The translations under genes were made by a program, and so were the position numbers. Shown here piece by piece: positions 15,500 through 52,365 of a DNA stretch of 64,000 nucleotides; within the stretch, counting starts at the first letter, position 1; each line of letters starts with the position of its first letter. The notes beneath the pieces are model-generated. The model was given only the letters and a program-made list of their open reading frames with translations. It was not told where the DNA came from and did no database searches. This stretch comes from Marsupella aquatica (Eukaryota > Plantae > Marchantiophyta): positions 27,910,210 to 27,974,209 of the forward strand of contig OZ316893.1 of the NCBI GenBank assembly GCA_973895155.1, written 5' to 3'.

Positions 15500-16772
15500 A
15501 CATACAGTCTTTATCGCACGGCTCCAGGCCAAGATTGACGGTTTGAAGGGACAAACCGTCAGTTGGCAAAAGGATCTGGAGGAAGCTGACTCTAGATCTC
15601 AGCGGGACACAGCCGAGATTGACACCCTGAAGATAGAGGTGGCGCGGCTTCAAGGAGAAGCCATGAAACAGGCCCAGTTGGTGGATAAGCTGACGAGCGA
15701 CACCCAACAACTGGAGGAGGCATGCCAGGACGCCGCGGAAGAGGCGGACGCGGCGAAGCGAGAGAACAAATCTCTGCTGGACCAGGTCCAGCTACTCAAG
15801 CAGGACGCCGACAGACTCAGAAGGCAGCGGGATAGCCTCTCCCACTCGGGCGGCTCTGGCAAGCGTGCCAGGCATTAGCGGCGGAGTAGGATTAAAATAG
15901 AGTAGGAGTAGCTAAATTAGGCTATAGGGACAAGCACCTGCCCTAGTTAAAGCAGCACTGCCATGCTGTACAACCTGCATAGATTAGGATCTTCTAATAA
16001 GACAAGCCGTTTTCCGGCCTGACAGCCAGCTTAGTTAGGACCTTAGTTAGCGAATCTTTGGGCGAGAGGGCACTCCGTTCCTCGGCCCTTAGTATTTAGT
16101 GCACCCCTCGGTAGAGGCAGGGGGATTTTTAGTCTCAGTGTTGGACATCCGCGGTATGTGCGGGGAGTCCCGACCTCTGGGAGTGAAAGAGTACCAAGGG
16201 GAGGGTGTAGGACTAAGCTTGTTGGGCGAGTGCGAAGCCGGGCTCCATTGTAGTGTACACCCTCGGCCTCAGACCTGTTCATTCCAGAGCTTTCGGGTCA
16301 ACTAAGTGTACGCATATGTCTCATATGTAGTAAATCCTTTCCCATTATTTCCTTTGTGTAAATCGAGATTGTATGCTTGTGTGTATGTATATGTGTGAAT
16401 CTCGTGTATAGGTGCCAACGCTTGACCGAATGCACTACCCATGCAAGTCGTGCACGGGGTGCAGCTTGCGAGTAAGTGGTTGCGAGCCCGGGTTGAGTAC
16501 CCATACCATCGAATCCGGATCGAAGGCGGACAACATGAAGGCTTAGAAGCCCGTAACCCGGGGTCGATCCTGCTATCGACTGAGGTACGTTCCGGCGGCG
16601 GAACACAAACCATACCTAAGAGGTGTCCGTATATGACAATAGACGCACTTAGCGCTAGTTTATGTGAGTTAGGTGCATTTCGTGCCTCCCTCCCTGCCCG
16701 AACCCTCATTTCTGACGAAGGATGTGCCTGTCTAAGCCGCAGTCCAGTTAAGGCCTAGGCTGACAACGTGAC
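15500..16772 (+). mobile_element. Truncated copy of the ORF-carrying LTR-like unit (same family as 18510-22426, opposite orientation)
   Basis: The coiled-coil ORF end (…WQKDLEEA…GSGKRARH) is nearly identical to 19384-19815. The terminus GGCTGACAACGTGACA is the reverse complement of TGTCACGTCGTCAGCC at 18510. The left boundary is approximate. Confidence 0.8.
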
Positions 16773-17480
16773 ATGTGGGATCTGCATCCCTAAGTAGAGT
16801 GACATCTCTTACTCTGCGTCCAGTGACTGCCTAAGCCTTTGTCACTCTCTTGGTGACAGTGATCAATCTGCGCATACAAGTGTATGCCTCACATAGACTC
16901 TCTCTAGTTGTAAGCTGGAACTCTTGGAGACCTTCAACTTATCAGTTCTCACACCCTGATAGTTCTGCTTCAGTACCTCAAAGAATTCCACCACAGGGTT
17001 GAATGCTGGCGCAACTCCAGTTCCTGTCACAATCACACTGGCAGGAGTAGTGGTGGATGTTGCTAGAGTGCTGTTGGTGGATGGTGTGCCACTCTGGCTA
17101 GTGCTGGTAGAAGAAGTAACAGTTGTGGCAATGGGTTGGGCAGCCGCACTAGTGCCATAAGTGATGGACACGTAATTAGGTGACTATTGCTGTCTCCATG
17201 CCTCAATCTCAACCAAATGAGCCTTCCAAAACTCATGGTAGTTATCCATAGGTGGCCCCTCCAAATGCTGAAATAATCCTTTCCATGCCATGAAAGGGGT
17301 AAACAACGTGGCATTATGCAATGTCTGCATATCGCACCATGTATCAAACTCCTGGATGAAGTCATCCAGATCAATTGTGCCAACTGCACCAGAGTATCGT
17401 CGTGGGCCCTTTGTAGCCCCGTACATCTCGTCCATATTCCACAACAACTCGGGGGGGTCACTATATGGAGGGTCATACAT
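16773..17480 (-). pseudogene. LTR-retrotransposon gag-like remnant
   Basis: YSGAVGTIDLDDFIQEFDTWCD…LFQHLEGPPMDNY resembles the capsid N-terminal region of retrotransposon Gag. It is disrupted by stops/frameshifts and by the 16772 junction. Confidence 0.6.
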
Positions 17481-22960: not shown

Positions 22961-25614
22961 GTTTCACTTCGCAAACATGCACGCGATAGTGCCTCTGACT
23001 GCGCTACTGATCAGCAGCAGCCCGCATCCGCTACCAAACAACAACATTCAAAGTTCTATTTCTTCAACAAAATGCAGAGGTCGACATGCAAGTTCTGCAA
23101 AATTGCTATAGTTGTTGCACGATTCAACAACATCTGTGGCTGTTTCCCTTGCGAAAACAGCAGATCGGCCCAACAGATCTGCATACGACGATGATGCAAG
23201 CCCGATCTATCAACATCCGCACCTCAAGAGGCCCGATCTACTTCACAAAAATGCGAACAGCAGCATACTGTTCGTCGAATGGCAGCACAGATCAGACACA
23301 AACTTCTCAACACCAACTATAGCGAATCAAAATACCGGCAATCCACTCCACGATCCGAGGTACCACAGATCAAAACAACAGCTTCACAGCTCCAATTGAT
23401 TCGATCTACCGCAAATTGTCAATGACAAACTCAGACTGAGCTTCTGTCCGCACAATAGAGTTTGAAGCTCCTGATCGATCTTTCAATGTAATCTTCTCAA
23501 CAATCGGCACAACGATCTCGGTCAACAATACCCCATCAATCCCGCACCGATCCGATCACACATGTATGTCAAGCCAACGCACCTTGCACTACTCAAAGAA
23601 TCCACGTTACACAAGCGGAGCTCACAGCCACCATAGCCACACTCAAGCTCCTCTCTCTCCAAGGCTCAACATTGAAAGATGACCTTTCAATGCCTCACAA
23701 GAGAGAAGTACCCTCTCACTCAAACCTAATGGAACCTTATCGGCTCATATAACACACATACCAAACATACGGATCTAGATAGTACGATACACTCTAACAT
23801 TACCTAGAATGGTGTGACATTGTCGAACCTCCATATGTTCGATTCAAGACATCGGACATCTCTTCCAGCATGTCACTTTCTTCAAGTAGTTGGGTGATAT
23901 GATTGGCAAGGACATCTTCAATGTCATCATCAGACAATGCCCAATCAGCTGTCCACTATTTGAATTGAGCACTGAGCACGTTCCATAAGGAACACAGAGA
24001 ATTTCCAAAAGGACCATAGGATGAAAATTTGTGTTTGACCCTAGAGAGAAGGACAATGAAGCGAGAGTGTGAATTTCTATCTCGAGGCAACATAGATCAT
24101 ATACACATAGTCCAATCAACAATTCCACATTGTTCAAACCCAATATGATTTTGTGCCAATTTCTGAACCCACCCATGGCTTGAAAGAAGTGTGCCATTGA
24201 TTGAACGGAGCAATATCAGCTGAAACTCTCGTGAGATGGACAGATTCAATTGCACAGACAATTGCGTCCAAGAGCAAAATGCCAAGGCCAGGGCACAGAG
24301 GAGCGCAAATTTGTGAAATTGGATGCAATAATTCATGCCAACAAGAGGTCAAGGGAAGTATGTCCAATGCACAAGCTGGTGCAAGCTTACGCAATAATTC
24401 CTTGAGAGAGTAGACTGGAGCAAAAGCACCACAAACGACCATGTGCCTCGCCTATAAAGTAACATGTGTCCATGTCATATAGCTCATGGAAACTATCCTG
24501 TAACGGGTGGGGTTGGGGGTGGGTTCTGACAAACCCCGTGAAGCATATAGCACATCCCAATAATAGCTGGGTCATTGCGCTCTATTAAGGTATAAAGGAA
24601 CCCCGTCAGCGTTGGAGATGCTCTTATGGGAGCACTCAGGAGAACTTGAACGATCATAATAAGGAGGAAGTTCGGAATGACCGAAGCAGGCTTTGCAGGT
24701 TTGCGAAAGTCACAACAAGATTTTTTTTAGTAATTTATCTGTTTCTCAGAATCTGCTGTCGAAGGCCTTGGTACTTCAGATCGGGCTTCGGATTTCGCGG
24801 ACGATGTCGAGATTCCTCGAGGCTTCGCTTCTGCAGAGGAGATGAAGCAATTGCATCGAATCTTCATAGTTCCGCGGGCGGCTCGTGCAGCCCTCGATTA
24901 GCCGTGATCGGATGAAGGCCTCCTGTATTTCAAATTTTACGGACAATGTGAGCTTCCTCGGGGCTTCGTTCCCGAGGAGGAGATGGAGCAATTTCTTTGA
25001 ATCTTCGTAATTCCGCGGGCGGCTCGTGGAGCCCTCAAATTGCACACGACAACTTATTGCACTCTTACACGTAATCAAGTTGTGTATAGCTCGCATCATG
25101 TACTCATTTTGCTCTCTGCCATGTCCTTCCCCTGCCACTGTCGTTCTTCACATCAGCCTCTTCAAGCTCATTTCGTCACTTTGGATACCATCCTCTTGCC
25201 TTGGTTCATCGTACGCACTCTGAGGCGGTTCACCCTCATGCTGGTTAGGTCGTAGTGCAAGGCGAGGCTCTATATTTCTTTGAGTTGTTTTTTGTCATCT
25301 CAGTCGCTGACACTCGATTGTGGGATAGGATCCCTCTGCCAAGCGGTTCTTCCCACTTACGTAGTCTTGATTTGAAGTCACTGTGGAGAGTCCAATCCCG
25401 TGTTCACTTTCTTCTTGTTGATGACAGAGACATTCGATTGATGAGGTTAGGACCCTTGGTTAATCTACCGCTGGGTGTGCCAAATGCCCATATCATCAGG
25501 TCAGTTTGCTTCCGATAGAAGGATATAATCCTGATTGTAGACCCTTCTCTCGGGTAAGTCCGTGCTACTGGGAATTGTAAGTGCACCTCGATCAATTTCA
25601 GGGATTGAAATAAG

Positions 25615-26229
25615 ATGTCAACTTTCGACAAGCGATCTCTGGAGTTCAACATCGTGTCTGCCAATGACCTGAAGAAGGTGAAGAGCTTCGGCAAGCAGAG
25701 CTGTTTTGTTGTGGTCTATGTTAACCCTTCTCAAAAAATGTCCACTAAGGTAGACCGAGTAGGTGGCAGGAACCCGTGTTGGAACTCCAAGCTGATTGTC
25801 ACATGCGACGAGCAGATGTTCATCAAGTCCGGTTCATACATCACCGTGGAGATATACTGCTCAGGGCGTATCACCAACAAACTCGTGGGCACTGTCTCTA
25901 TTCCCTTGCATGAAGTTGGCAGAGATGGAAAGTCCGGTGCCACCAAGCCCCAGGTCATGGCGTACCAAGTGCAGAGGCGTTCAGGAAAGATTCAGGGGGT
26001 GCTCAATATGGCTGTGAAACTCGGGGAGAAGAGAACCGTTTCGACTTTGCCTGCCCCTCGTGTTTATGGTAAGCAGCAGGCCAGAAGCGGTTCAGGTCTT
26101 CCGACTTTCCCTCACTACTCTCAGCAATCTTATGGATCTCAGCAGCAGTACTACGCCTATGGTAGTCTTCAGCCGCACAGCTACGGAGGCCATCAGCAAG
26201 CCATGTGGCGGTCTACTCCTCAGTTTTGA
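25615..26229 (+). CDS. C2-domain protein, SRC2/BAP-like, with Q/Y/G-rich tail
   Basis: LEFNIVSANDLKKV…STKVDRVGGRNPCWN…ITVEIY…KLVGTVSIPL…YQVQRRSGKIQGVLNMAVKLG is a plant SRC2-type C2 domain; 204 aa, intact. Confidence 0.85.
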   Translation: MSTFDKRSLEFNIVSANDLKKVKSFGKQSCFVVVYVNPSQKMSTKVDRVGGRNPCWNSKLIVTCDEQMFIKSGSYITVEIYCSGRITNKLVGTVSIPLHEVGRDGKSGATKPQVMAYQVQRRSGKIQGVLNMAVKLGEKRTVSTLPAPRVYGKQQARSGSGLPTFPHYSQQSYGSQQQYYAYGSLQPHSYGGHQQAMWRSTPQF

Positions 26230-28400: not shown

Positions 28401-30992
28401 CTTTCTTTTTTAATTTTTTTTTAAAGGGGAGATCCCCCACATCCCCCACAACTTTATGCCACCGGGAGACCCGGACAAAAGAAAACATCTGCCTGATAGG
28501 AGGAGGCAAGGAAAAAGACCAATTAATGGGGGCCAATGAGAAGAAGCACACCCAGAGAAAAAGGAGGACCCTCCCTACCAGACTGCCGGAGAGAGGGGCT
28601 AGTCAAAGATGGCAGGAGGGGGCCAAACAAAGCCAGATGGCAGAGAGTACCTATAACTAACATAGAACCAGAATGAACCAGAAGCAGCAAACAAATAGCA
28701 TGGAACCCAGCCAGACATCCAACTGATCACCAACTAAGTTCCTTCCTCCCTTGGCAGACCACCCAAATAAACCCTCCTGTCGTCAATGAGAGAACCCCGG
28801 GACCTTGATTACCAGGAACACTGATAAAGCTAGCCGAGGACAGTCCCATATGGTCCGCCAACCGGGACGAACCGCAAACATTGATCTGAGAAACCAACTG
28901 ACCGAGGGGTTGTGCCGAATAGTTGCCATCATTCGATGTTTACTTCCCCCCTTCCCATACTCGCCTTAAGGCATTCCCCGAATACTTCGGTCTCCCAGAA
29001 GACAGATGGTTTGAGATTCCCCTGTGGATGCAATACTCTGCGCCTGCCAGCCAAGGCACCCCAATAACATGTGGGTAGCAATAGATACTCTGCAGGAGAG
29101 GACAGAATAACCTTACTCTGAGCCAGAAGAGATTCCTGATTGTTGAAACCACTCATTGGGACAGAGAATATCTTACTGCCATGGAGCAACCGACCAATCC
29201 GATTATCCCAATAATCCCAATTGTTCTCCAGCATACAAAGTAGCCTGCTCAAAGGAGGATGGATAGCTCAGAGAGAGTCGACCATATTGATTGTCTTGGC
29301 CAGAATCCCTGCGATGAATACTGCCAAAAGCCCACACTAGATTATAAACTCAGACTGCCACTGACTACATTGTGTGATATCTATAGTCAAACGATTCCCA
29401 TAATTATCCAGATGATCATCTTATTCCTGCCTAGAGATCAGACATTATATCTGAATCATAGCTGGATAGAGAATAAGTGAAAAGAAGAATTTCTAATAAT
29501 GCATGCTACGAGAGAAGATTCAAAAGCCAATCCAGGAGAGATTATGCTTCAAAGGAAAAGAAAATACATCTATCACTGCAAATAACAACTTTTTTTTTTT
29601 AACTTTTTGTTTTTGTTTTTGTTTTTGGGTTTCTTTCAGAAGAAAGAAAAAGGAAGCCAATATTGGTTGACAAGCGCCATCAACGAGTCCATGGAAAAGG
29701 GCAAGGTGGAAATCTGCAAGAGAGGGCACCGGAGAACCACACAACCACCTGAATAGTGGGGTTCAACACCCAATAGAAGCAGCCGACAGATGGCTGCAAA
29801 ACGTGACTCCATAGACAAACACATCACTACTTGAGTGACAGAATCAGGGACTATTCGGCTATGGGAATGAACAAGGGTAGACAAAGGAACTTATTAATAG
29901 GGACAATCAGGAACCATCATCGAGGAACAGATGAAAGAAAAGAAGGATACTTATAGTAACCTCAAACAAACAGCGGGGAACAGTACGAAGAAAGTTGTAT
30001 GGGAATATTATAAATAGACGATTGGTACTAAGAACAATGATCAAAAATACTTGGGATAAACAAAATGAGTATCAACGATGAGAACGATGGGCAAGAGGGC
30101 CTGAGATGAATTTTTCTGCGTAGTGCAAACGCATTTTTGTTTCTCAATGTCTGAGCAATAAGCCACCGCGTGGAGATGCTGAACAACGGCAGAAGCGGCA
30201 GCAAAAGGGGAATATACAACAAATATGTTCTGGAACAAACGAAGGTTACGATTTTTCTAGAGAAGCCACACTGTTTCATAAATTACATAGATCCGAGCAG
30301 TGTGCCTTGGAGAATACCCAAGGGCCAAATCCAAGGTACTAGGGAAGGAATGGCCCCCCGGAAGATGAGAGAGAGTTGGTATTCTCTCAAAGAACTATAT
30401 GGTTCTGTTCCAGGCGATAATTGCTTGCTGACAAGAGAAAAAGATGTGTTGATTATCTTCAACTCCTTGTCGGCAAGCTGGGCACCTGCCATTTCCATGT
30501 CCACATTGTTGTGCGCGCTTGCCAGAGAATAGTCCAGCTGCAAGGACTCTCCATAAGAATATCTTTCCATGATTCGAAAGATCAGAACTCCAAAGTCTCC
30601 TCCATCGATGCTGCCAGATGGCACCAGAGTCAGATGTGCCCCATCTGGTATCTAATGCACAGAAGTCACCTTCAGACCTGTCCAATAGTTTGTACGCGTA
30701 TGTGCTACTCATAATACGAGGGGACGGGTGATTCTGGAGACCCTTCCAGAACCATTGAGATTGAACGAAGGATAAAGATCGGGAAGGTGGCAGACCTGAC
30801 TCGAGAAGAAAAATAATTCTAGAAAAGACAGCCAATTCTGAATCACTATACCCTCTCAACCTAGAGATACGGGACGAGAAGTCAATCCATTCAGAAGATT
30901 GCCAATTCCACAAATCCGAGATGGCTCTAATATTTATACGTGAATATGCTGTGATGATCCTTGGTATCCTTGGTATCCATGGTATCCATGGT
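28401..30992 (-). mobile_element. 5'-truncated L1-type LINE with 17-bp TSD
   Basis: AAAATAGTGTACTCTTT lies at 28384-28400 and 30993-31009, with a poly(A)-like tail (T-run on +) right after the left copy. ORF 30395-30913 encodes a zf-RVT segment (GKIFLWRVL…CPAC…EDNQHIFFSC). Confidence 0.85.
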
Positions 30993-32247
30993 AAAATAGT
31001 GTACTCTTTTACTATGCCAAGAACATTATTGACTACTCATGGTAAAATGGATCCACCAGGTTTTGTTTTGGGGACAGTGGTGGGGGCTTAAGTTTTTGCA
31101 CAGGCTATTATTCTGTTAAACAGATGATTTAAAAATTAAATTAAAAACACACATGGGCTCCCTCAGGAGGGGTCAGGGGTAGAGACGGGTACATTTGGTA
31201 CCTGGTTTTAAAAAGCATTGTACATGCATAGGAGCCTTTCTCATTCGGACATGAATTGAATAATGTCCCTTTGGAGCCACATGTACACTGTTTACAGTAG
31301 TTTACTTAATGTAACTACCACAACTACATTATCAGGACTCTTTACGTGTTACATGAAGACGTTAAGCCCGACGTCTCCTTGCCGCTAAAGAAAGGCGTCA
31401 CACTTGACGTGAATGAGGGCACGTTTTGTACGAAGTAATGAAGGTTACAGTTTACATCGTTCTCTACATTGTTACATACGTCTCAATGTACTACGTTACC
31501 TATTAACATCATAAATAGAGTCGTTATTTTGGATGCAGATTGAACAGGAAAATCACCATATAACATCGTTTAAAATGACGTTAAGGTCATATTACGTAGT
31601 TTGTGATGTCGTTAATGATGAGTCTGTCCCAGACGTATGAGTAGTAAGTCGTTTGAGGCTTGGTATAGATGGTGTTAACGAGAACGTTTGAAAATAGTAC
31701 CAAGAATGGAGAGACATGAATGGAGTGCCGTTTAGGGTAAACATTAATCTTGTATGTCACATCCTTCCAGGCTACCTTAGTTGGGTGGGCTTTAGGTTTA
31801 GGTTCATATACACATGGAATACACATAAAATAGACATATGAGTCGGGAATGCCACTATAAATGGGTGGCGTCAAAATTCTTTGCCAAAAATGTACAACAT
31901 GCAGGTGGACGTCCACCTAGTCATGCATGGTATACCCTAATGCCGCTGAGAGCGGCTCCTATCACGTCCAGACCTGCGAACAGAAAAAGCAGGCGGTGCC
32001 TTCGACTATTTGCCTTGGGGCTGCAACTCGTACCGAAGTGGATCCTCCTCTGAACTACTGCTACCAGACACCAACTCCGCAGCTCCACTGCCTCTCCTCC
32101 TCGGGACTACATCTCTAGTGCCACTGGGTCCCCTAGTGGCATCCCTCTCGACACGGCTCCTCCTCCTTTCTCTATGTCTCTCCCTCCCTCCCCCTCTCTC
32201 CCTCTCTCCCTCCCTCCCCCTTCTCTCTCTCTCTCTCTCTCTCTCTC

Positions 32248-33368
32248 AAGAAAAGAGTATGATAAGCCACTAATGATTCCCATGGCTAAGGATCATGATC
32301 TCATCATATGTGGGTAGGTCCCATGACATGCACTACGGACATATACCCCCTGTCACCTGATACAAGGATAAAGTTAAAACTAAAATCCAGAATAACCAGG
32401 AGATAATCATCCGGCCACCAGAGCCATTGATTTATTCCCAAAACATCTGGGCCACACAAAACAACCAGATACCAAAGCCCATGACCTAAAAAGCAAGCCA
32501 AGATAGCGGTGCTACCAAGTCCAGCCATCCAGCCACAGAGCTTACATTTCTCTGAAAACACTCGATAGGTGAAGAAGCACACACCATGTGGGGAGCATAG
32601 GCTGACATGCATGGCAGAGTAAGAGGACACACTGCACTGGCAAGAAGATCGTGGGACCAGCAGCGCAGGCCAAGGATCAGGGACTGCTGAGGCAACACAG
32701 TGACACACAGCCTGTCGTGGCTCAATGGGAACCCCACCAAATCAGGTGCTAAGCTCACATTTTTTTACAGCAGATGTTGCTCCTTCTTTTCTATTCCATT
32801 CACGACATATTGGTATGCATTAATGTGATGTTGGAGTTAATAATAAAAAGGAACATAACAAGGCTTGGGAGACTCGACTTTTTCCGGCCCATGTCTCCCC
32901 GCAGCCGTCTAGACATCGCTGTAGAACATGGGACTAGAAATTGTGCCTATTAAAGCACAATCTCGATCCAATGGCGGGGGCTGAACGAAGACATTGGAAT
33001 TGTGAATGAAAACAGTCCGTCCATTCCTGGTAAAAGAATATGGTCCATGCTCAATGCTGTGGACACAACGTTTGAGTACAGCTGTCACCAAGCAGAGCTC
33101 AGCATCGAAAGATACTCAGCTTTATAGACCTAGTTGTTTTGAAAATGGACAGTTTATAAATAAGAGTCGCTATACAGAATAAGCATGTCTGACTTCCATG
33201 GTTAATAGACGTTCGTAGTACCAAAAACTATATGTGTGAATGTATGTGTGAATGTATGATCGATACTCTACATATGATTGAATGTTGAATCAAGGAATGG
33301 CCAATAGAGAACAATAGGACCTGCTTTAATGTAGGATGTAATATATCTATGGATATCTATATATAATA
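32248..33368 (+). mobile_element. ~1.1-kb non-coding unit bounded by (TC)n tracts; divergent relative of the Penelope-like terminal repeat
   Basis: Begins right after (TC)13 (32222-32247) and ends at (TC)5 (33369-33378). It carries the same structured RNA motif at a similar offset as the 1.37-kb repeats but is otherwise not alignable by eye. Confidence 0.65.
32878..33036 (+). ncRNA. Structured RNA motif, copy A (candidate ribozyme)
   Basis: Stems: CTTTTTCCGG/CTGGTAAAAG (closing), CCCATGT/ACATGGG, GCAGC/GCTGT, ATTGTGC/GCACAAT, TCCAATG/CATTGGA (loop GCGGGGGCTGAACGAAGA), GAATG/CATTC. Pseudoknot TCCCCG/CGGGGG. Confidence 0.7.
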
Positions 33369-34748
33369 TCTCTCTCTCAATACATGAAGATAGAATATGC
33401 CAAGATGTTCAAAACAAAAGATTAGAGCAAGTACAGATAGGCCAGAGAGTACAGTAGAGACGTTACGCAAAATATGTAAAACATAGTAATGTTTACACCT
33501 TATATATGTAATATTAAAGTCCTGTAAAAATATCCCTATTAAACACGTACGCTGCACCAGCACCCTTTGATCACATCAAGTACAATAGGGTACTCCAACT
33601 CTCGTAAGCTCATACTTCACTAGCGGCTACCCTAAACTCTGGACATCCGCTACTTAAGACTCCCCCACACAAACAAATTTTCATCCACACATTTACGCAT
33701 GAGCACATTTTTTGAGTAAGTTCCTAGCTCCTCTGTTCCTAGATCCTCTGTTCACAGCACGACTAGCACTTCTCGCACGACATTTTTAGGACCACTGAGA
33801 ACGGCCACAGCAGCACTACATCACAGCCTGACACACACACGGAAATCGCCCTGCAGCAACAACAAACTCAGCATGGCTCGTACCAATCAGGTATACACTC
33901 ATAAAACATCCATCTTTTTCAATGAATTTTTTCCTCGTTTTTTGCTAGCCTAGTATCGGTTCATGTCTCCCCGTTACCGCCGCGGCTAGAGGTAGCAGAA
34001 ACATGGAACAGGGATTGAATGCAAATAACTTTTAATCCCGCCCCGGGGACGGGGGCTGAAAGACGACCCTGGGGTTTGTGATGCAGAATATGTCTACTGT
34101 ATTCCGATGCTAGTTGAGGGTCCACATCAGGCAGATTGACTTGCTGCTATGATGAACTGCGTAGAATGTCCGGCTTCAAGAATGAAGAGGATCGCCTTAA
34201 CTTTTTTTGTATGCTTCTAACCGTGGCCCCTAATACTGACTATCGACTGTCGGCAGTTAGCATTCCAGAAGGTTTCTTTTCTGAGATTACAGCGACACGA
34301 TTCCGGCACATCTAACTTCCGATAAACTTAGATTTATTGTAGAATGGTTAAATACTGACTTTACGTTGACCATTGCCTAACGTATGAACAATAGTTATTA
34401 ATGGCAGAACTTCATCATTCTATTCTACTCACGACTCTGTTTAGAAAGATCGCGCACGACCTGACCACTTGCCTGGATTACATAACGCTTTTCTGTCAAT
34501 TTCTACTTACGATCTTGTTTAAATATTTCTGGTCTAAATCATTTGGTACGCATGAATAAATTCTTGATTAAGTGTCTATCTATGGTACACCTCGATAACA
34601 TGAATGACTTGGTATGTGGAGTATTAATAGAGACATGACTGGTTACCAAGACTCTATGCTGTGATGACTTTGCCTATGTGTGGTGATTTAGTACAGACTT
34701 GACAGTGGCCTTGACTGGGTGTTTTTTCTATGAAAATTATCTCTCTCT
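33369..34748 (+). repeat. Upstream pseudo-LTR (~1.37 kb direct repeat) of Penelope-like element
   Basis: Nearly identical (scattered substitutions and small indels) to ~39047-40424. Both ends fall in TC tracts; there is no TG...CA and no PBS. Confidence 0.9.
33950..34113 (+). ncRNA. Structured RNA motif, copy B (candidate ribozyme)
   Basis: Stems: CTAGTATCGG/CCGATGCTAG (closing), GTTCATGT/ACATGGAAC, GTTACC/GGTAGC, GGGATTGAA/TTTAATCCC, CCCCGGGG/CCCTGGGG (loop ACGGGGGCTGAAAGACGA), GAATA/TATTC. Pseudoknot TCCCCG/CGGGGG. Confidence 0.75.
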
Positions 34749-35187
34749 AACATATACCACTTCTCCGATTGGGTTCGGAGGACCGCTGTCAATCCTGATA
34801 CTAATATAGACATATGCGCATGACTGTTCACAGAAGAGATGGATACGGGAACTCCAATCTCTTGGATATATGGATGACATACCACGCCCTTGTAATATGG
34901 CCATTCAAGTTACATTGGCTTCCATTTTGGCAGCATGAAATCCATACTGCCATACAGACACATGATCGAGAGGTCATGAGCCGTGGGATAGATGACGAAC
35001 CAGGTCAGTTACTACTTCATGTACTCGGAATCTCCGAATGGTTTACCATTTTCCATGCTGCCGGTTGTGTTGGTACCACTGCCGCACTCGAAAATCTAGA
35101 TGAATATAGTAACTGCCTGTCTAGCTTTGAAATATCGATGAAGAGGAGCTCGAGCAGGCCAGGCTAATCGGACAAAAGATTGCGACG

Positions 35188-36336
35188 ATGCTCTCTTATA
35201 CCCCGAATAGCAATGTCACAAATGATAGTTTCTCATCATCGAACGCCTCTGACGTCGCAACCAAACTTCGCGCCAATCCATTACTTAATACTGAATGGCT
35301 ATCGCCTGAGGAACGTATTGCATTTAATGAGTCTATAGAAGGTGCTCAGTCATCCCAGAGAGAATTAGACGATTCAAAAAAAGATGGTGAACCATTCGTT
35401 CCTAACACTCCACCTAGATTTCTAGAATGGGAGTCCTCTAAGGTTGACTGTTGTATGTGGCGGATTCCAAACATCAACAACCTGGCTCCACTGTCTGTCA
35501 GTATGTGGAAAGCATGGGCTTCCTTATCCCCTGAAGATATCAACAGTTGTCGGGAGAATGCTTTACGTGGTTTCTCATGGATCGAGAAATCTCCCATGTA
35601 TGTTACGCGATGGCCCATGACTGTATTTGGTGCACCTAAATACAAATGCCCTATCGATGCGGGTGTCAAAATTTGAGGTAACTTCGTTACCAACACGTCA
35701 CGCTCAACACAGGAACACAAGACCAAACTTTGGAATTGGCACCGACCATTTCTTCGATGTACCTACAGTGCTTCATCCAAAAATGGGTGCATGGGCCAAA
35801 TCGTGTGGTTTGACCATGCCATATGGTACATGGCTAATCACCTTGAATTATTTTTTAATGCATCGACAGCACAAGGTCGACTGGTACTAATGATGAGTTT
35901 TCTGGGAGGAGATGCACGCCGTATCGTTATGGACCAAGTGGCCTTCATCTTGGTGCAACAATTCATTCTTGACGCTGCTGGAGAGCAACTCGTCGACCCG
36001 AACGCATAGTTACTGGCAAAATACGGTAATGCCTCTGGGGCGCGCATTATCGAGGCTCTTATCAAACCTGGGGAATTTTCTGATCAAACTCCAGCTCCTA
36101 AACGAAAATGGAACCTCAATCAGACCCCTGCTTCTGACCTTGCCAAACAAAAAGGCATATACGCCAATCAAACGCCACAACGAGGACGAGGCCGTGGAAA
36201 CTACTCATGGCAGCCACAGACTCCTAATTCATCTTTAGGTGCTCCTAGCCAATTTGCGGGCCCACAGTCTTGCGCCAGTACCCCATCGTCTGATAACGGC
36301 CAGTCACCACTGCAACGACGTAATCTTCACTTTTAA
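35188..36336 (+). pseudogene. ORF1 of Penelope-like element, unknown function
   Basis: A single frame 35188-36336 with two in-frame stops (35674 TGA, 36007 TAG); W-rich core and a C-terminal RGRGRG/low-complexity tail. It probably extends upstream across a frameshift near 35130. No GIY-YIG motif was seen. Confidence 0.6.
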
Positions 36337-36673
36337 ATAGCTATGGGTACTTAGCAGTAGGCAAATAAACCACTAACGTGTTTAAGTTATGATGCACGTA
36401 TTATGGCTTCTATAGTAGTACATAGAGAACCAGTAAAACGTTACATTACAGCTTTCCATTCCTACTTAGTGTTTGCTGATACTTAAAATGTTTTGATTAA
36501 CCACCATCCTAGGTTAACTTTTATGTTCAGTCTCGTATTCAATCAACCTTGCAATCAACTTAGAGCGGTTATACTTAATGGGTCCAAAAGTTTAGCAGAA
36601 CACATCGTCTAGCATCAATACAGGCAAACATCACTACACCTCCGGATCTAATAGACATCACACTATATATTCT

Positions 36674-38842
36674 TTGTTTGTGTGTTCAGATGATCGGCAG
36701 CTCGTTCAACTTCCACACGGTCGCTTCTCTATTTCCCGGAATCCTGACCATACCGGCATACGATTCATACATCTCTTATACACTAGTAGAGCTTTTGAAT
36801 GGCTACCGCTACGCCTAATCTTTACACAATGCCTGTCACAAATTAATGCATCTGATTCCATTCCCGCGCTAGATTCTATTTGTTTTAGTTGGAGATATAC
36901 TCCCCCGATTTCCACACTGTGCTATCACCCAACCCAAGTCTTCTGCGATTTTGAGTGTATGAACCTTGCTTCTGATCAGACGACATGTTGCTGTCAGACT
37001 AATCGGTTAAAAAAATTCCTTGATCCACTTACACGAAATGAGCACCAACTTCCATCCACCAAATATAACATCCATGTGCGCACCACTGACTTAGGGCTCA
37101 TCCATGACAAGCATCTCAGATCTGCACTTTCCTCTAGACTCAATCACATCATACCACAGGCTACTACTTTTAACGATGCATTCCAGGAAATTGTAAGAGC
37201 TTGGGATAACGTGTGCAACATTTTACAACTATCTGAGATTCTTATCAACTTCGGCACTGAGGCCCTTCACAACATCTGTCACACCTTGTGGTCAACCGGT
37301 AAGCAACGCAATATTGGAAGACATCAACGACACTTACAAGGACAACTATCTACAACGGCCATCTCCAAATACGATATCTCCTCGAGCATCTATATTTTTC
37401 CGGCCTTGATAAGGCTGCTAACAACGTTTGCATCATGTGCATCCACCATATTCGAATACAGGCCCTACATCGACTACAAGGCGAAGACTTCACTCTCGAC
37501 TCACGACTACTCAAAGATGTAGTCAATACGTGCCAAGCACAAATTGAGGAGCTCATCCCCGAAATCGTATTTTGGTATGCTGGTCTTCCGTTCCTTATGG
37601 CGTCATACAAGTTGCACAAACACAAATATCGGTGGATTACCAATGCTGCTTCATGCATTTTTTCAGGACTTACTCGTATCATCACAATGATCCTTGGCCA
37701 AATTTCCATCGAACTCAAAGCCTGGGCATTCAAACAGTCTGAATATCTACGTACTTTCTTTCGAGTAGAGACCACATTTTTTTGGGTTATTGATTCTTTA
37801 TATGAGTTTACGTTGAATCTACCACCCAACATACACTATTTGTATGTTGCGGACATCACTAGATGCTACGAAACCATTCCACTGTCTGGTGACGATAATC
37901 TGCCCGATGCCATTAGCCATGTTGCCAAAATTGCCTTTTCACACCACAACTCCTCTCGACGAAGGCAAGAGAAACTTTGGATAAACATCGACTTGACCAC
38001 GGGTCTTGCCAAAGAAGCTCGTTGGGCATGCCGTATGCCTGGGACATCATGCTGGATTGAATTTTCATTGGAGCGCTTCATACGACTGCAGACATGGCTA
38101 ATACAACACTATTACATTCGACTTGGAGATCAAACTTGGCGACAGTCTACTGGCATTCCCATGGGATTTTCGTGCTCCCCACAATGGTGCAACCTTTACT
38201 TTGTTTCATACAAAATCAGATTCGTCCAAAGGTTAGCTCGACTAAAACAACATACACTACTCAATGACTTTCATTTCACGTACCGGTACATTGACAATTT
38301 CTGCATCCTTAACAATCACAACATAAGTCAATTCTTGGACACGTCAGCACCACGTACACCGGATAATCCATATTGGATATATCCTCTACACATTGTCTCT
38401 ATGCAACCAGAAATTGATACTCACAAGCCTGGACATCCCACTATCGGCACGTCTGGACATTTTCTCAATGTCCATATTGACATACTGAACCAACATAGCG
38501 GCTTCTTTGAAACCACCCAATTTGACAAACGTCACTCCCTTCCATTCCCTTTTCAGCAATACATCCAATTTCGGTCTAATCGACCTGTGAGACAGTCCTA
38601 CAATATTGTCCTTCTCACAGGTGGTCCCTATTTTGCATATGGCTAGTAACGCTGACCTGGCCTTTTGTGAAATTCGTATTGTTGTCAACACTCTAGTAAA
38701 CAATGGCTTTTTTCAGTCCCGCCTAGATCGAATAAGCTTTAAATTTTGTACAACCAAATCCTTCTCGGGAATACGCTTCCCACTAGATAACCTTATTACG
38801 CTTTTACTTGAACACATGAACTGGCGCGCTGTCCACATGTAA
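36674..38842 (+). pseudogene. Penelope-like (Naiad/Chlamys-type) reverse transcriptase, frameshifted, no endonuclease seen
   Basis: Linker CCCQ…FLDP…HVRTTDL…LRSALS, then LDKAANNVCIMC, YVADITRCYETIP, QSTGIPMGFSCSPQWCNLY, YRYIDN (normally YIDD), GHFLNVHI, FDKR and a thumb ending VNNGF. Frameshifts lie near 37360 and 38612. Confidence 0.85.
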
Positions 38843-38875
38843 ACAAATATAGCGAGGAGATGTCAAAAGAGGAGA

Positions 38876-38987
38876 AGTTGTGAGTATGGTATGCACTCCC
38901 CGTCTGGGGTGAGTGCAATGCACTCCCCGTCTGGGGTGAGTGCAATGCACTCCCCGTCTGGGGTGAGTGCATACCGCACTCACTACT
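38876..38987 (+). repeat. Long hairpin whose 27-nt tip is triplicated, in the RT 3' UTR
   Basis: ATGCACTCCCCGTCTGGGGTGAGTGCA x3 (38891-38971), enclosed by AGTTGTGAGTATGGT / ACCGCACTCACTACT. Confidence 0.9.
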
Positions 38988-39023
38988 GATGGGGGTGCCG
39001 CTACCATGGGTATATGGAGGTGG

Positions 39024-39026
<3 letters not shown>

Positions 39027-39059
<33 letters not shown>

Positions 39060-40424
39060 ACATGAAGATAGAATATGCCAAGATGTTCAAAACAAAAGAT
39101 TAGAGCAAGTACAGATAGGCCAGAGAGTACAGTAGACGTTGTGCAAAATATGTAAAACATAGTAATGTTTACACCTTATATATGTAATATTAAAGTCCTG
39201 TAAAAATATCCCTATTAAACACGTACGCTGCACCAGCACCCTTCGATCACATCAAGTACAATAGGGTACTCCAACTCTCGTAAGCTCATACTTCACTAGC
39301 GGCTACCCTAAACTCTGGACATCCTCTACTTAAGACTCCCCCACACAAACAAATTTTCATCCACACATTTACGCATGAGCACATTTTTTGAGTAAGTTCC
39401 TAGCTCCTCTGTTCCTAGATCCTCTGTTCACAGCACGACTAGCACTTCTCGCACGACGTTTTTAGGACCACTGAGAACGGCCACAGCAGCACTACATCAC
39501 AGCCTGACACACACACGGAAATCGCCCTGCAGCAACAACAAACTCAGCATGGCTCGTACCAATCAGGTATACACTCATAAAACATCCATCTTTTTCAATG
39601 AATTTTTTTCCTCGTTTTTTGCTAGCCTAGTATCGGTTCATGTCTCCCCGTTACCGCCGCGGCTAGAGGTAGCAGAAACATGGAACAGGGATTGAATGCA
39701 AATAACTTTTAATCTCGCCCCGGGGACGGGGGCTGAAAGACGACCCTGGGGTTTGTGATGCAGAATATGTCTACTGTATTCCGATGCTAGTTGAGGGTCC
39801 ACATCAGGCAGATTGACTTGCTGCTATGATGAACTGCGTAGAATGTCCGGCTTCAAGAATGAAGAGGATCGCCTTAACTTTTTTTGTATGCTTCTACCCG
39901 TGGCCCCTAATACTGACTATCGACTGTCGGCAGTTAGCATTCCAGAAGGTTTCTTTTCTAAGATTACAGCGACACGATTCCGGCACATCTAACTTCCGAT
40001 AAACTTAGATTTATTGTAGAACGGTTAAATACTGACTTTACGTTGACCATTGCCTAACGTATGAACAATAGTTATTAATGGCAGAACTTCATCATTCTAT
40101 TCTACTCACGACTCTATTTAGAAAGATCGCGCACGACCTGACCACTTGCCTGGATTACATAACGCTTTTCTGTCAATTTCTACTTACGGTCTTGTTTAAA
40201 TATTTCTGGTCTAAATCATTTGGTACGCATGAATAAATTCTTGATTAAGTGTCTATCTATGGTACACCTCGATAACATGAATGACTTGGTATGTGGAGTA
40301 TTAATAGAGACATGACTGGTTACCAAGACTCTACGCTGTGATGACTTTGCCTATGTGTGGTGACTTAGTACAGACTTGACACTGGCCTTGACTGGGTGTT
40401 TTTCTATGAAAATGATCTCACTCT
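39027..40424 (+). repeat. (TC)15 plus downstream pseudo-LTR copy
   Basis: Direct repeat of 33369-34748; ends at ATGAAAATGA|TCTCACTCTC, where the host ORF resumes. Confidence 0.9.
39627..39790 (+). ncRNA. Structured RNA motif, copy C
   Basis: Same as copy B; the C>T change in AATCTC keeps pairing as G-U. Confidence 0.75.
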
Positions 40425-43400
40425 CCCCGTAGTCTATGGCTGGTATGACCCCTAACAGTCTCCACTCCAGGGGAGAGGTCAGAAGAAGACCGACCCTGTG
40501 TACCTAAACTGCCGTAATGCCCACAGTCTACTAGGGCCTCCTCCTGCATATCAGGCTCCTCCCCTCCATGATCTGCCTCCTCATCCTCCGTGATGGGCCA
40601 TGCCACTAACCCCTCCAAAGGAATCCAATCCTCTTGCACATGACATAAGATTTCAGTGTACCTCGTGCAAATAGTGGATGCAAAACCTAGCATAGCAAGA
40701 ACCTAACCTGACTATGTAACTTACCACTGGGTGGTCCTCCGGGACAGAGTTCAGCTTAGCCCATAGGGCCGCCGGGCCATAGCATTTTGAATAGAGCCGC
40801 TCCTGCTCACTTGGCTCGGCGTTGGCTCCAAACTTGCGTTTCTGCAGGAAATTGAAGAACGTCGTCACCACCATCGTTAGTTACAAAGTTCCAAACAACG
40901 TTTTTGACTTAACGTTGTTCAAATCAAGGTTTATGGTTTAGCTGCCATATTAACGACGCAAGAACAACGTTAATTAAATGTAATGTCATGAGAGACGTCA
41001 TAAGGTAGGAAGAACGTAGGATGGGGAGACGTAAATTGGATAATGTACGATGTTAGAGGAGAAAAACAATGTTAATTCTTGGTTCTCACCGCAATGGCCG
41101 AAGCATGAACAAGCTGTGCTTTGAAGAGGGTGGGGGACTTACATAGGTTGCGAGGAAGCCTCGCCATCCTCCCTGGCCCCAGAAGTTGGTCACACACAGG
41201 TGGCCATTTGATTTGCGGGCTGTAGTAGCTTTGTCCCCCATGTGCACTCGCTTGCCTACTAAGGTGTCAGGTGCTGCTTCCAACTCAGCCACGATCAACT
41301 TGAAGTCGGCCTCACTCATTCCTTCTGGTTTCAGGTATTGCTCTGTCCTTGGGCATCTCATTTTTTGAACCTTGTTTCTCCATCTAAACCTCTGATCTGC
41401 AAGGTAGCCTACAATCTTTTGTTTGATGTGCCTGTAGTCTATTTCACGGCCATTCCTAAACCCAGCCTGCACATCATTCAGGAGGAGCTGAAACTTCTTT
41501 GGATTCTGTGCGAGATCCTTCCAAGTTGTCCAACCAGGACAGTGCTTAGCACAACACGTCTGCACTCGATTTGTGAGGGCCTTCTCATCCACAACATCCG
41601 GCCTAGCATCAAACACGTCCAAGGTGATGGTTGGGAGTTTATCTCGACTCACAATAGTAGTTACAAGAGAAGGTCGTCGCTTCTTGTGGGAGTGACGTTC
41701 ATGCTGAGGTGAGTACCTCTCTCTTCTGTTTGCCCTTGCATCTCCCTCTGTTCTTCTTCTTTTGTAGCTGCTTCTACTATGTGTATTTGCATCTCTATGC
41801 TCCTTCCCTTTCCCCTCCCGTCTTCTCATCAAGGCTGCTATTGCTACTGTGTGGTCTATCATGATGCCTCCTCTGCTTGCAAGAGTCCCGATCCTGATCA
41901 GGCTAGAATCTGTCATGTGCTACCCTGACCATGCTCTTGATTGGGGTCCCACTAGGTGCCTGAGAATCAGGCTACATTCCATTGAAGGCAGGATCGTCCC
42001 ACCCATCATCTGGTAGGGATGGGAAGGAGTTGAGAGCATCAATCGAAGGCCCCCCAACCTCCCCCAAGAGTGTTGCATCTTCAGTTTCCACAAGGGTATT
42101 TACAAACGACAAGAACCAGGAAACAGTAACAGTAAACAGTTACTGTTACCAGGAGAAATGAAAAAAAAATGTGATTGAGCTCCATTATTTGGTCAAGAAG
42201 TTTAAAAAACACCATCAATAAACCCCATTTTCAATCGTTTTCAATACCACCATCCAATTGTGAAGGAAAGTAGGGGCCATTAGAACAAAGGTGTTGCCGA
42301 AAACCTAAGATTACCAGCGCCCAACGCTAGTATGCCGGCAGGAAAGCCAAAATTTTGGTATTCCTAAAATAATGAAAATGATGGAGATTGGAGATTCTAC
42401 GTAACGTCAATCGAGAAGAGAACAGGGAACTTAACGGCCATTAGAAAAAGGAGTTTCCAAATTTTGTGGATATTAGCAGCGCCCAGCGCTAGTATGCTGG
42501 AAGATATTGTCTGTCATATCAATTGAGAAGTGAACATAGGAAACTCAATTTGAAGCATTTCCAACAAAGAGAGGCCACGGCAGACGTTGAATATTTTCAG
42601 CGATGGGCGCTACATTAAATGTCAGACTTCAAGAAATCAATGTTAGCGCCTAAACATGGAACAATGAACATAAACAGCGCTCGGCGCTAGCTCAAATCTA
42701 GGAATCAATGAATGACCATGAAAGAACAAGAGAGCCGATCCAAAACTGCATTCCTTACTTCCAAAATTGGTCAAAACATATAACCGGTATTACACCATCC
42801 GCAGATCATCTTCAAATCAACCTGCAGCATAACATGAACATAAGCAGCGCTCGGCGCTAGCTTAAATCTAGCTTAAATGTAAACTAAAACTGGACCTTCT
42901 GTCACTGAAAGCACCCACAGCCCGAGCACTATAATCCTAGCGATTTCCAGTAGTCGTCAAAGCCCGTCGAAGCCCGCCCTGGCCTGTATGTGCTTTTTCT
43001 TGAGCTGAGCCGCACATAATAGGGCCGCTGATCCAAAATGGGCCTAAACATGTAGCCGAAAATACATGAACTTTGAATCAACCATAGGAGAAATCCCACG
43101 GTCCAAGACGAACAAAAGCAGCGCTTGGCGCTAGCTTAAATGGGAAGCCTATGGCCACTGAAGCTTGTGTCACTATAACCACCTCCGTCGTGAACAACTT
43201 TAGCTCTAAGATTGGCAGTCGTCGTCGATGCCCGCCGTGGCTTGTCTGTGGTTTTGCTTGAAACCTAGACCCCTGAGCCGCACATAAGAAGACGAGGGGC
43301 ACCGAAACTCCGCATTCTGATTCCCGAGGTCTAGAACATTTGTATCAAGGAAGTCAACACATCCCAGTCGCTCTTGTACTCGTCGCTGAATAGGCTGAAA

Positions 43401-50000: not shown

Positions 50001-52365
50001 CAGTTTCTGAAATATTGACTCTCATATCAGCTACGGGCGCTAACAATGAAATAGATCTTCACTGCCATAGCAGCGCCGGGCGCTAACCAAGGAAACCAAT
50101 TATACTTACATTTTTTCCAGATCTTGTTGATTCACTTGGGGCCGTAGTATCTGCTTTTGCTTTGGCGCAAGGCTTCCTGCTTTGGTCAACATGAACAATT
50201 GTTGTCTTGCATATTGTTTGCAATCGTGTTGTGGATTGATCCACATCGTCCGGAAGCCCCTGATTCATGTCAGAAACAATGTTGACTGGGATCTGGGACT
50301 TAGACAGCTTATGGAAAGCATCCTTTTCTCTGTGATCAAAGGGCGAGTCCCATCTATCTGTATCTAGGTACCATGGACAATGGGTTCTCTCCCATTCACT
50401 TAAAGGTCTTGCTGGGAAAATTCCCTTGACAGGATACATAGAATACAATTCAGCTAAAGAATCACTCTCCGGTACTACAGTCCACTTGAGGAAGGCGGCG
50501 GGATACGCCCAGAAGTAATCAGGTTTTGTAGCTTCCATGTGGATGTAAAAATGGTAGAGGTACCATTTTGCTCGCTTCTGGTTCTTCAAAGAGTAATCCT
50601 CTTTGTCAGGATACTTCGAGGGCCACATTGTATTAAAAAACTTACCCTTGACAGAGTCACCGTATTTCCTAAAATCATTCGTGTCTATGTCAATGAGAGA
50701 TTCGAATGATTCACATGCCCAATCTTGTAAACGATTCACGGGAATGGTTTGTTGGACCTCTCGCAGAGCACATTGCAACATCCCCACCGCAATCCCTTCT
50801 ACATTATTCCATGTAATCCAAGTGTGACACCACTGTTTTACTGGATCATCATTGACGCTATTCGGATGGAAGAATTGTCTCCAGAGCTCCGGATTGCAAT
50901 GTGCTACAAGCAAAGTACTTTGTAGCTTGGCGTCAAGAGCCAAAACAGCTGTAAAAAGCCTAGCCCGGTCCATGGTACACAATACGGTATCTGGCTTCTT
51001 CTCCCGCTTATTCCTCTCCGTGACAGCATACATTTCTGCGCACATAGACAGAAAGTCCTCAAACTCTGGACTCAACAAAGGAGTGATTTTTGAGGTCTTC
51101 ACTGCCCATTCCTTGGTTGCTTCCTTCATCATAACGGCATGCCTTCTGGAAACCTCCTCGACCGACCAAGGGGAACCGAGGGCCGCAGCGGACTCCATGT
51201 CAATCTTGAACTGGTTCAAATACGACTTAATCTTATCCTGACATAGAATGTACACAAGGGCCTCCTGAGGCATCTTCTTTGTGTACCAGGATCCTTTTCA
51301 CATCTTCATCCTGATCTGCTCAAACTTCTTGTAATTTGCAGGGTCGATGAGCTTACTATAGTACTCCAGGTCATGCATCAAGATCCGCTTAATTCGATCG
51401 GCATCTAGGATCCAGGAGGGTTCCACAACGGCTTGTCCAAGCCTGAAATGCAAGAATGAAATGAGAAGAACATATAAGCAACGTCGGGCGCTCGTAAAAC
51501 ATAGCCTCGGAAAGTTATGCTAGAAAGAATGAACAATTCACAATGACTCACGAAGTTATGCACAAAAGAGTATCTTACTGATTAACGGTATGCATAGCCA
51601 CTTCGATTTCTATCAGCGAACCCTTGTCGCCATTGAAAATAGTACAAAGTACACGCGGGTGGTACTTTGGGTTTCGGGACTCTCCTGAGTGACAAGAGTC
51701 CACGAATAAAGCCTATGGTTCCCGTCAAAAACTGAGAACATTTTGTCCTTCAAAACCAGAAAATCTGGGTCGGCAGCACATTCTTCCTCGAATTTCTCAT
51801 TCTCAGATGTCCATATTGGATCCCAACTCTCACGAATTTCTTGAGTACAGGTGAGAAGCACTCCCTCAGCATCGGTAGGCTGAACGTAAAACCTCATTCC
51901 AATCGAAGAATTGTATCCCATGCTAAGGAAGCAATCTTTGAGCTTGTCGATGGAAGAACTATCTTTCTGTAGAGTTTGGACAACCTCCATATGCACCAAT
52001 CGACATAGTGGAATTCGTGGAGGCTCTTTGTCAAACCCTCTGAAATCCTTCCCAAATGACATGACATGTTTTGAAATAAGATCCGTCTCAGAAAACTAAA
52101 CATCTTGAATCGCAAATGTGTCAAGATTCTCCATCTTCTTTCTCGCTGGCTTGGCAAATGAAATACCAGAGATTGGAACAAGCGATGCGGTGGACCTCAT
52201 TACTCGACGCGTATACACCGAACCAGAGAATGAAGACTCAGAAGACTCACAATATCCATGATCCTGATCCCCAACCACACTATACCCCCTCGACAAGGAG
52301 CGGATTGCATCCATCGTCTTTACGATGAAAGGTGTACGAACAGAATTCTCACGACTGATTACCAA
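44045..52365 (-). pseudogene. Multi-exon gene: ParB/Srx-like N-terminal domain plus C-terminal beta-class N6A/N4C DNA methyltransferase-like domain; split by the 45019-49072 insertion
   Basis: IPLCRLV…IDKLKDCF…VFDGNHRLYSW (ParB-type DGNHR, ~51712-51726); a large middle exon (~51440-50110); FIYLPTG…KWN…FLSDDGMLAIL (degenerate motifs IV-VI); THPRDIFMDWTVGSGSSFVAGDYSGRFVIGVE (motifs X-I-II, ~44700-44790). Several stops and frameshifts. Confidence 0.7.
45019..49072 (-). mobile_element. 4.05-kb solo-LTR-like unit (TG...CA, TSD CAAGG/CAAAG) with internal ORF
   Basis: TGATAAAG…CTTATCTCA; the flanks differ by one base. Removing it restores the host frame (…PKTDRQ, ~87-nt intron, IFATIFMLRLDV). The internal minus-strand ORF 48218-46794 (PLLYPEKPRRVTV…, coiled coil) has stops. 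Confidence 0.7.

Follow-up and report, generated by a model that had tools for sequence, protein, structure and literature searches.

A degenerate Penelope-like retroelement, almost certainly of the PLE-X group, at a (TC)n tract of Marsupella aquatica and its possible insertion by repeat annealing

Introduction

How does a retroelement with no recognisable endonuclease (EN) enter a microsatellite in the interior of a chromosome? The question is raised by a block of Penelope-like sequence (positions 32248-40424) in a 64,000-nt stretch of the genome of the liverwort Marsupella aquatica (assembly GCA_973895155.1, contig OZ316893.1, positions 27,910,210 to 27,974,209 of the forward strand), which is termed the window and to which all coordinates refer; every feature of the block lies on the + strand. 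An initial annotation of this DNA had proposed a Chlamys-related Penelope-like element (PLE) without a GIY-YIG endonuclease at an internal (TC)n tract, a description that is borne out here. The element is almost certainly a dead PLE-X retroelement, i.e. a member of the EN-lacking (EN-) group related to Chlamys. The wider reading, in which the RNA of a dead PLE-X bears (UC)n tracts and insertion likely depends on their pairing with a free (GA)n 3' end at a TC microsatellite that has been broken or nicked, has in our estimate a somewhat better than even chance of being right.

The PLE-X group was described by Craig et al. (2021, PMC8557442; cited throughout from a part of that paper, supplementary figures excluded) from families of Chara and Selaginella and from BLAST hits in mosses. 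Its members keep the CxC linker, lack GIY-YIG, carry an N-terminal CxCX1-8C extension that an intron likely separates from the RT, and form units of 5-7 kb. PLE-X1_cBra is found genome-wide with a preference for (CA)n and the Selaginella PLE-X target 28S rDNA, so the assumption that endonuclease-less elements of this clade were unknown or only telomeric does not hold. According to these authors, it is yet to be seen by what route PLE-X enters its target when no endonuclease has been identified in it; the words 'anneal', 'liverwort' and 'quadruplex' are absent from the main text, and an internal tract is not discussed in the portion considered. A search outside subscription journals found one later work on PLE-X, PMC13159263, which reuses the sequences of the 2021 paper.

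Reverse transcriptase and clade membership

The reverse transcriptase (RT) occupies positions 36690-38842 and is of the Naiad/Chlamys type. All of the motifs named by the initial annotation were recovered, i.e. the CxC linker (CCC at 36986), DKAANN (37408), GIPMG (38152) and YRYID (38281), and the RT ends, as had been claimed, after the thumb at 38842. This copy is dead, because it contains two frame changes (near 37300-37400 and at 38614) and reads YRYIDN where its relatives have YIDD. Searches with the RT retrieved 6 long and 120 near-length relatives (about 120 RT clusters), with proteins of Chara, Selaginella and Ceratodon among the top matches; among the best long matches are proteins of Chara and Selaginella in which the extension is present as well. 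A scan of viral contigs gave no RT relative.

A tree of 39 RT rows was built without the published PLE-X consensus proteins and without rows for EN-bearing (EN+) Chlamys, Athena, Coprina or telomerase reverse transcriptase (TERT), and long branches in it were flagged. Within this sample, the 9 extension-bearing and 4 GIY-YIG-bearing rows fell on opposite sides with 100/100 support, and the window RT grouped, again at 100/100, with the extension-bearing Chara P0001 and Selaginella P0004.

The element shares with the PLE-X families (i.e. PLE-X1_cBra, PLE-X2_cBra, PLE-X1_sMoe and PLE-X1_sTam), as far as these are described in the source, the lack of GIY-YIG, the CxC linker, the CxCX1-8C extension, a putative intron, the unit size and insertion into a microsatellite. 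It differs from them in having TC in place of CA or 28S, in its bryophyte host, in lacking a canonical hammerhead both in the window and in relatives L001-L006 (see below), and in a conserved C-terminal motif ahead of the ORF1 stop, such that ORF1 may be a protein of its own. With EN+ Naiad/Chlamys it has in common the RT type (CxC, DKA), pseudo-long terminal repeats (pseudo-LTRs) and a microsatellite bias; those elements have an N-terminal GIY-YIG (PMC8557442), in whose place an open reading frame (ORF1) stands here.

Absence of GIY-YIG and identity of ORF1

Comparisons were made with 17 relative loci (L001-L017; 14 of PLE-X type and 3 GIY-YIG-bearing Naiads) on short or circular contigs. No Pfam match to GIY-YIG was obtained in the window element, including its N-terminal part, and a profile made from Naiads L012, L015 and L016 gave a best E of 0.95; these probes are Naiad-type, and a very divergent EN could escape them. 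Likewise, tblastn with one Naiad GIY-YIG found nothing in L001-L006 and did find L012, L015 and L016 (E 4e-14 to 7e-19). The initial annotation had also reported no GIY-YIG, and had named the presence of this domain in intact family members as one finding that would overturn its reading; none was seen in L001-L006. Deletion of a GIY-YIG from this copy is ruled out, since six relatives with ORF1 and then RT, in the same order as in the window, are also devoid of it by the Naiad-type probes. Within the limit of the Naiad-type probes, the sequence comparison marks the lack of GIY-YIG as a trait of the clade.

ORF1 (34861-36336) had been called separate and unknown. The comparisons instead identify it as homologous to the PLE-X CxCX1-8C extension: tblastn matched it to Chara P0001 (E 1.7e-15) and to L001-L006 (E 1e-14 to 6e-49), the match of P0129 begins at 34861, and homologs form 180 clusters. 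The CxCX1-8C motif (RCTYSASSKNGC, 35758-35790) is followed by WFDHAIWY, which is identical in PLE-X1_cBra. Its three cysteines are kept in 63, 61 and 63 of 65 aligned rows, the window having Tyr at the second. The frame is further broken by two frame changes and two in-frame stops. Damage of this extent, together with that of the RT, is consistent with a copy that has decayed neutrally after insertion, as the repeats described below differ by about 1.2%.

Between ORF1 and the RT lies a spacer (36320-36689) that is predicted to be an intron; its putative phase-1 acceptor, the AG at 36688-36689, is conserved. The acceptor signature was present in 13/13 RT frames reaching that far, by a loose pattern used with no control; the donor is uncertain and not conserved. 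In 19 of 51 ORF1 homologs the motif [RK]x[LIFV]x[FWY] stands at most 6 residues from the end, as compared to 1.2% in shuffles, and because this motif precedes the stop ORF1 seems to end naturally. Judged from these frames, a distinct ORF1 protein is compatible with splicing of the RT. The C-terminus of ORF1 in the window (36300-36336) and in homologs takes the form SPxxRxLxF/W, which we take to recall a cyclin-dependent kinase (CDK) site plus a cyclin-docking RxL motif and which would presumably link the protein to the cell cycle.

Anatomy of the block and its boundaries

The left boundary is a host (TC)13 tract (32222-32247), the end of a TC/C-rich stretch that begins at 32169 inside a multi-copy host repeat. 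It is followed by the non-coding segment A (32248-33368; 1.1 kb), with TC on either side, by a (TC)5 junction (33369-33378) and by an arrangement TC-B-TC-core-TC-B-TC, i.e. the upstream direct repeat B1 (33379-34739), a short element-internal tract TCTCTCTCT at the repeat/core border (34740-34748; the likely priming tract), the core (34749-39025), an element-internal (TC)15 tract (39026-39056), the downstream repeat B2 (39057-40415) and a right boundary TCTCACTCT (40416-40424), which is imperfect TC and likely a host tract. The repeat measures 1.36 kb, the core 4.3 kb, the unit 5.68 kb and the whole block 8.2 kb. B1 is non-coding, without any ORF of 100 aa, and 98.7% identical to B2; with the tract ends included, 33369-34748 recurs at 39047-40424 with 98.5% identity over 1381 nt (17 mismatches).

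The claim that every junction lies in a TC tract stands in part: five tracts were seen (the fourth being 39026-39056), but the fifth, TCTCACTCT, is imperfect and those at 34740 and 39026 are internal to the element. Agreement was found with the earlier statement that the insertion stops where the internal copy continues, as the B1/B2 match ends where the internal copy has TCTCTCTCT. The case for an interrupted ORF with a RERERE stretch is weak: once the insert is removed, the longest frames across the joined flanks, which contain RE repeats, stay open for no more than about 107-117 aa and have no credible family match. RERERE is encoded by every (GA)n tract, and the right-flank frame had no credible match in Pfam. 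In run X2 an empty-site-like contig carries the sequence from 40416 onward with (TC)7 ahead of it. The insertion site is thus a TC tract within a multi-copy repeat of the host.

Contrary to the initial annotation, the 8.2-kb block is not one element. Segment A shares with B a single 125-nt motif (66%, E 4e-6) and matches neither the core nor the flanks. Its read depth also differs. Coverage of the core was low and even in contigs from four public runs; in run X1 the core had a depth of about 33, as compared to 70 for B1, 191-662 for A and 653-1227 for the flanks (830-1227 at the left tract), where a summed contig depth is no copy count. The core formed an unbranched contig of low depth in both X1 (one contig of 4303 nt, depth 33, one difference) and X2 (one contig of 4202 nt). 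The block is therefore a composite of an A piece followed by repeat-core-repeat. Because of the difference in depth, A is assigned to a family of higher abundance than that of B and the core, and it is likely to be a terminal-repeat-type segment of a sister PLE-X family.

The B repeats are taken as pseudo-LTRs because PLE-X1_cBra displays the layout of the window with CA for TC: in its published consensus, by eye, a G-rich box and (CA)17 follow the RT, and then comes a 3' region of about 2.5 kb with a short run of CA at its end. PLEs ordinarily give rise to pseudo-LTRs (PMC8557442). An unrelated insert as the origin of B is ruled out, since the sequence following the tract is common to relatives and present in the published Chara consensus.

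A conserved repeat tract behind a structured 3' region

The (TC)15 tract lies 184 nt past the RT stop, and a tract occupies the same position in L001-L006, where (CT)n numbers 13, 21, 14, 5+9, 4 and 17 units at 147-534 nt past the stop. Tracts of at least 8 units were found in 5/6 of these loci and in 0/372 background windows of 600 nt; tracts of at least 4 units were found in 14/372 of the same windows. A second tract, (CT)4, precedes the conserved ORF1 of both L002 and L003, and L006 has only (CT)3 there. Sequence beyond the tract is common to relatives (L001/L003, E 8e-7; L002/L003/L006, E 4e-7 or better), which places the TC tract inside the element. In the family of L011, L013 and L017 an inverted partial copy of the post-tract region stops at the TC tract (one ancestral event). 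These sequence comparisons mark the (TC)n tract as belonging to the element, in which it is conserved, and not to the target.

Ahead of the tract lies a structured 3' region (38882-39025), predicted to contain a long hairpin with three 27-bp repeats (38891-38971), a conserved helix and a G-rich box that abuts the tract; the fold z is -6.0 for 38935-39035. A helix of 6-9 bp before the G-box was present in 7/7 sequences, with an outer pair of A-U, C-G, U-G or U-A and a sixth pair of A-U or G-C, in a comparison that covers three RT subclades and for which the pairs were picked by script. A single pattern detected a G-box plus TC after the RT in 11/17 loci; with L002, added by a looser pattern, these make 12 of the 14 PLE-X-type loci and 0 of the 3 GIY-YIG Naiads. 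As L008-L017 are one family, the window and the loci represent four independent RT subclades. In both Chara PLE-X consensus sequences the RT is followed, by eye, by a G-rich box and (CA)n.

Some further features of these regions were recorded. The G-rich box (39008-39024 in the window, and in L001-L006) has four G runs in 6/7 sequences, such that a two-tier G-quadruplex is possible beside the tract. The inverted partial copies stand upstream of a decayed PLE-X RT (L011 8042-9240, L013 717-841 and L017 649-1845), the unit having spread inside a larger repeat. A non-coding motif of about 110 nt is common to the L002 post-tract region, L003 (about 416-520) and L006 (about 2100-2370); it has two hairpins, ends splice-donor-like in CAG/GTGAG, is unlike the motif of A and B and gave no Rfam match.

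Hammerhead-like motifs in the repeats

A hammerhead-like motif occurs in segment A (32885-33005), in B1 (33957-34081) and in B2 (39634-39758). Its blocks follow the order S-G-C (GUC, GAA and CUGA in A; GUC, GAAA and CUGA in B1), with stems I and III of 7 and 6 bp in A and of 8 and 6 bp in B1, where stem II was not found. With a pattern whose thresholds were set on the A and B copies themselves, 0/1000 shuffles passed for each of the three, and background sequence of 223,810 nt gave 0 sites. Seen by eye, stems I and III both differ between A and B in a compensatory manner.

Block order, the GUC site and stems I and III liken the motif to the type-SGC hammerhead (Eckert et al. 2023, PMC10085705, as described in the part of that report considered). 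It is unlike that type in its non-canonical core (CUGAACGA and CUGAAAGA), which reads CUGAAnGA as compared to CUGAnGA, in a stem II of 0-1 bp, in the lack of one A of GAAA in segment A and in its greater length. The motif is only a candidate for the type-SGC hammerheads, not a member, because of the extra core base, the missing stem II and there being only two distinct sequences, and any cleavage is putative. Hairpin-type and hepatitis delta virus (HDV)-type ribozyme readings were ruled out by eye, as the pairing register does not fit.

No Rfam match to a canonical hammerhead was obtained in 31500-41500 or in L001-L006, where nothing in Rfam rose above chance, and a relaxed pattern scan gave no credible core. 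The A/B motif is absent from L001-L017; a wider scan gave 1 viral and 22 bacterial matches, about what chance predicts for 20 specified bases. For comparison, a canonical hammerhead is given for three of the four PLE-X families, with two marked as deviating and none given for PLE-X2_cBra (PMC8557442), such that its absence here is compatible with membership in PLE-X.

Insertion by annealing and the alternatives

Insertion at this site may be pictured as follows. A read-through RNA would span B-core-(UC)15-B-(UC)4, and the (GA)n 3' end of the right flank would anneal to the short UC tract that ends B and prime cDNA synthesis. Synthesis by the RT would then proceed through B2 and the long tract to the core and B1 and, once the next long tract was reached, microhomology of (GA)n with (TC)n would serve to join the cDNA to the left arm. 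Segment A might likewise derive from a sister family, whether it was inserted on another occasion or acquired when the RT switched templates at a UC tract. The RNA- or DNA-binding partner could be ORF1, with the host supplying the break.

The layout agrees with this scheme in that both outer ends lie in a host TC tract and every segment boundary lies in the target repeat. The annealing step gains support from the (TC)n tract being a conserved part of the element, and we put priming by pairing of the element's UC tract with a (GA)n 3' end just on the probable side of even. By analogy, the element likely works like Athena and Coprina, which also have no endonuclease and carry repeats complementary to the DNA end on which they would prime, i.e. 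reverse-complement telomeric repeats used at telomere overhangs (PMC8557442, introduction). Those elements differ in attaching at chromosome ends, the window element being probably of another RT lineage and inside a chromosome at TC tracts; no telomeric array was found within it, and host genes and repeats lie on both sides.

Several observations pull in the other direction. The preference for TC is drawn from one site and the analogy with Chara, with no insertion end of a second copy, and one of the 9 nt at the right junction is mismatched. L010 has no G-box and L007 has only 4 nt of 3' sequence; L008 and L009 are duplicates, and L008-L017, with their shared flanks, constitute one old family and are not independent cases. 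No box plus microsatellite was seen by eye after the RT of PLE-X1_sMoe in the published sequence, and its exact 28S site is poorly explained by spontaneous breaks. The gaps in sampling and the flagged branches of the RT tree count here too, as does the conservation in the ORF1 core of residues D, H, N, R and E, which would be expected of an enzyme.

These residues bear on the alternative that retains most credit, though we consider it rather unlikely, i.e. that ORF1 itself cuts one strand of the target as a nuclease whose fold has yet to be described, with the internal (TC)n guiding or stabilising priming at its own nick; the element would then not truly lack an endonuclease. A 231-aa core of L003 ORF1, modelled with 90 aligned homologs, is predicted to be mostly helical at a mean predicted local distance difference test (pLDDT) of 94.7 and a predicted template modelling score (pTM) of 0.91, and a 437-aa form folds at 90.9. 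In at least 80% of aligned rows four cysteines and E214, N231, K296, N315, R318, D341, H342 and R390 (L003 numbering) are conserved, ORF1 lies upstream of the RT in L001-L006 and the Selaginella PLE-X, as described, use a precise 28S site. Against a nuclease, the 25 Pfam families shown for 99 members include none, D341 is N in 5/81 rows and H342 is Q in 13/80, and the core is mostly helical.

Fold and sequence searches for ORF1 gave no assignment. Full-length models gave a best E of 0.055 with Foldseek against the PDB and of 0.1 against BFVD, and a best Z of 4.6 with VIA, to helical bundles; the core gave a best Foldseek E of 2.4 and a best VIA Z of 3.6 with a root-mean-square deviation of 5.2 over 135 residues. 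A sequence search of the PDB had a best E of 0.2, Atlas matches were unnamed clusters or below 0.9, and a profile comparison with a Naiad protein had a probability of 0.1. For a predicted model, an absent structural match is neither proof that the fold is new nor grounds for excluding a nuclease; the core may be a candidate new nuclease or nucleic-acid-binding fold.

A fuller scheme would join these strands: PLE-X would be a retroelement clade sister to telomerase, its RNA would contain a helix-bounded repeat template that sets the target (CA in Chara, TC in bryophytes), ORF1 would be a zinc-binding nuclease of a new fold in place of GIY-YIG, and the terminal repeats of this lineage would carry a permuted hammerhead variant, of a type not given from a plant genome in the part of Eckert et al. 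considered. Taken as a whole this is unlikely.

The arrangement B-core-B might instead have arisen by recombination of a circular or tandem B+core unit, either with a TC tract or with a solo B already in place, and with no target-primed reverse transcription at this site. L002 and L003 have repeats at their contig ends, as is expected of circular or tandem units, the RT of L006 is split across both contig ends, and B1 and B2 differ by about 1.2%. A tract of 9 nt, imperfect here, is short for homologous recombination, pseudo-LTRs are normal in PLEs and their collapse also yields circular contigs, and we regard this origin as improbable. Also improbable, and slightly more so, is nicking of TC tracts in trans by the GIY-YIG of an EN+ Chlamys family, with PLE-X using the nicks, for which Chlamys-5_cBra offers a (CT)n preference in Chara (PMC8557442), since among the 126 RT relatives there is no EN+ Chlamys protein and the one annotated with GIY-YIG is Naiad-like.

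Surroundings of the block

Two host genes were identified in the window, one (2699-6375) for a TAF1C-like protein (weak Pfam match; 61% to a Calypogeia fissa protein, its sole match) and the other (25609-26226) for a C2-domain protein. Four regions with long open frames had no Pfam family above threshold, i.e. 56223-59123 (+, 967 aa), 60709-62913 (-, 318+416 aa), 50086-51297 (-, 404 aa) and 41089-41919 (-, 277 aa); these are probably genes of other repeats, with 41089-41919 possibly belonging to the host element. A zf-RVT fragment of a non-LTR element lies at 30398-31036 (-; E 1.3e-9). Other repeats comprise an inverted repeat of 1.28 kb (15516-16773 and 18510-19746; 76% alike around a 1.7-kb spacer), a near-perfect hairpin with 73-nt arms at 100% that is similar to a miniature inverted-repeat transposable element (13424-13672) and an exact tandem duplication of 181 bp (9307-9670).

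Significance

The PLE-X group itself is known and this copy is a dead and ordinary one; what is new is a variant with (TC)n. Intact frames exist in L002 and L003, and the ORF1 domain folds confidently without a known structural relative. With about 120 RT clusters and 180 ORF1 clusters, the PLE-X clade extends far beyond four families. Behind an RNA structure that is conserved, the element has a tract of the repeat into which it inserts, and this addresses the question left open in 2021.

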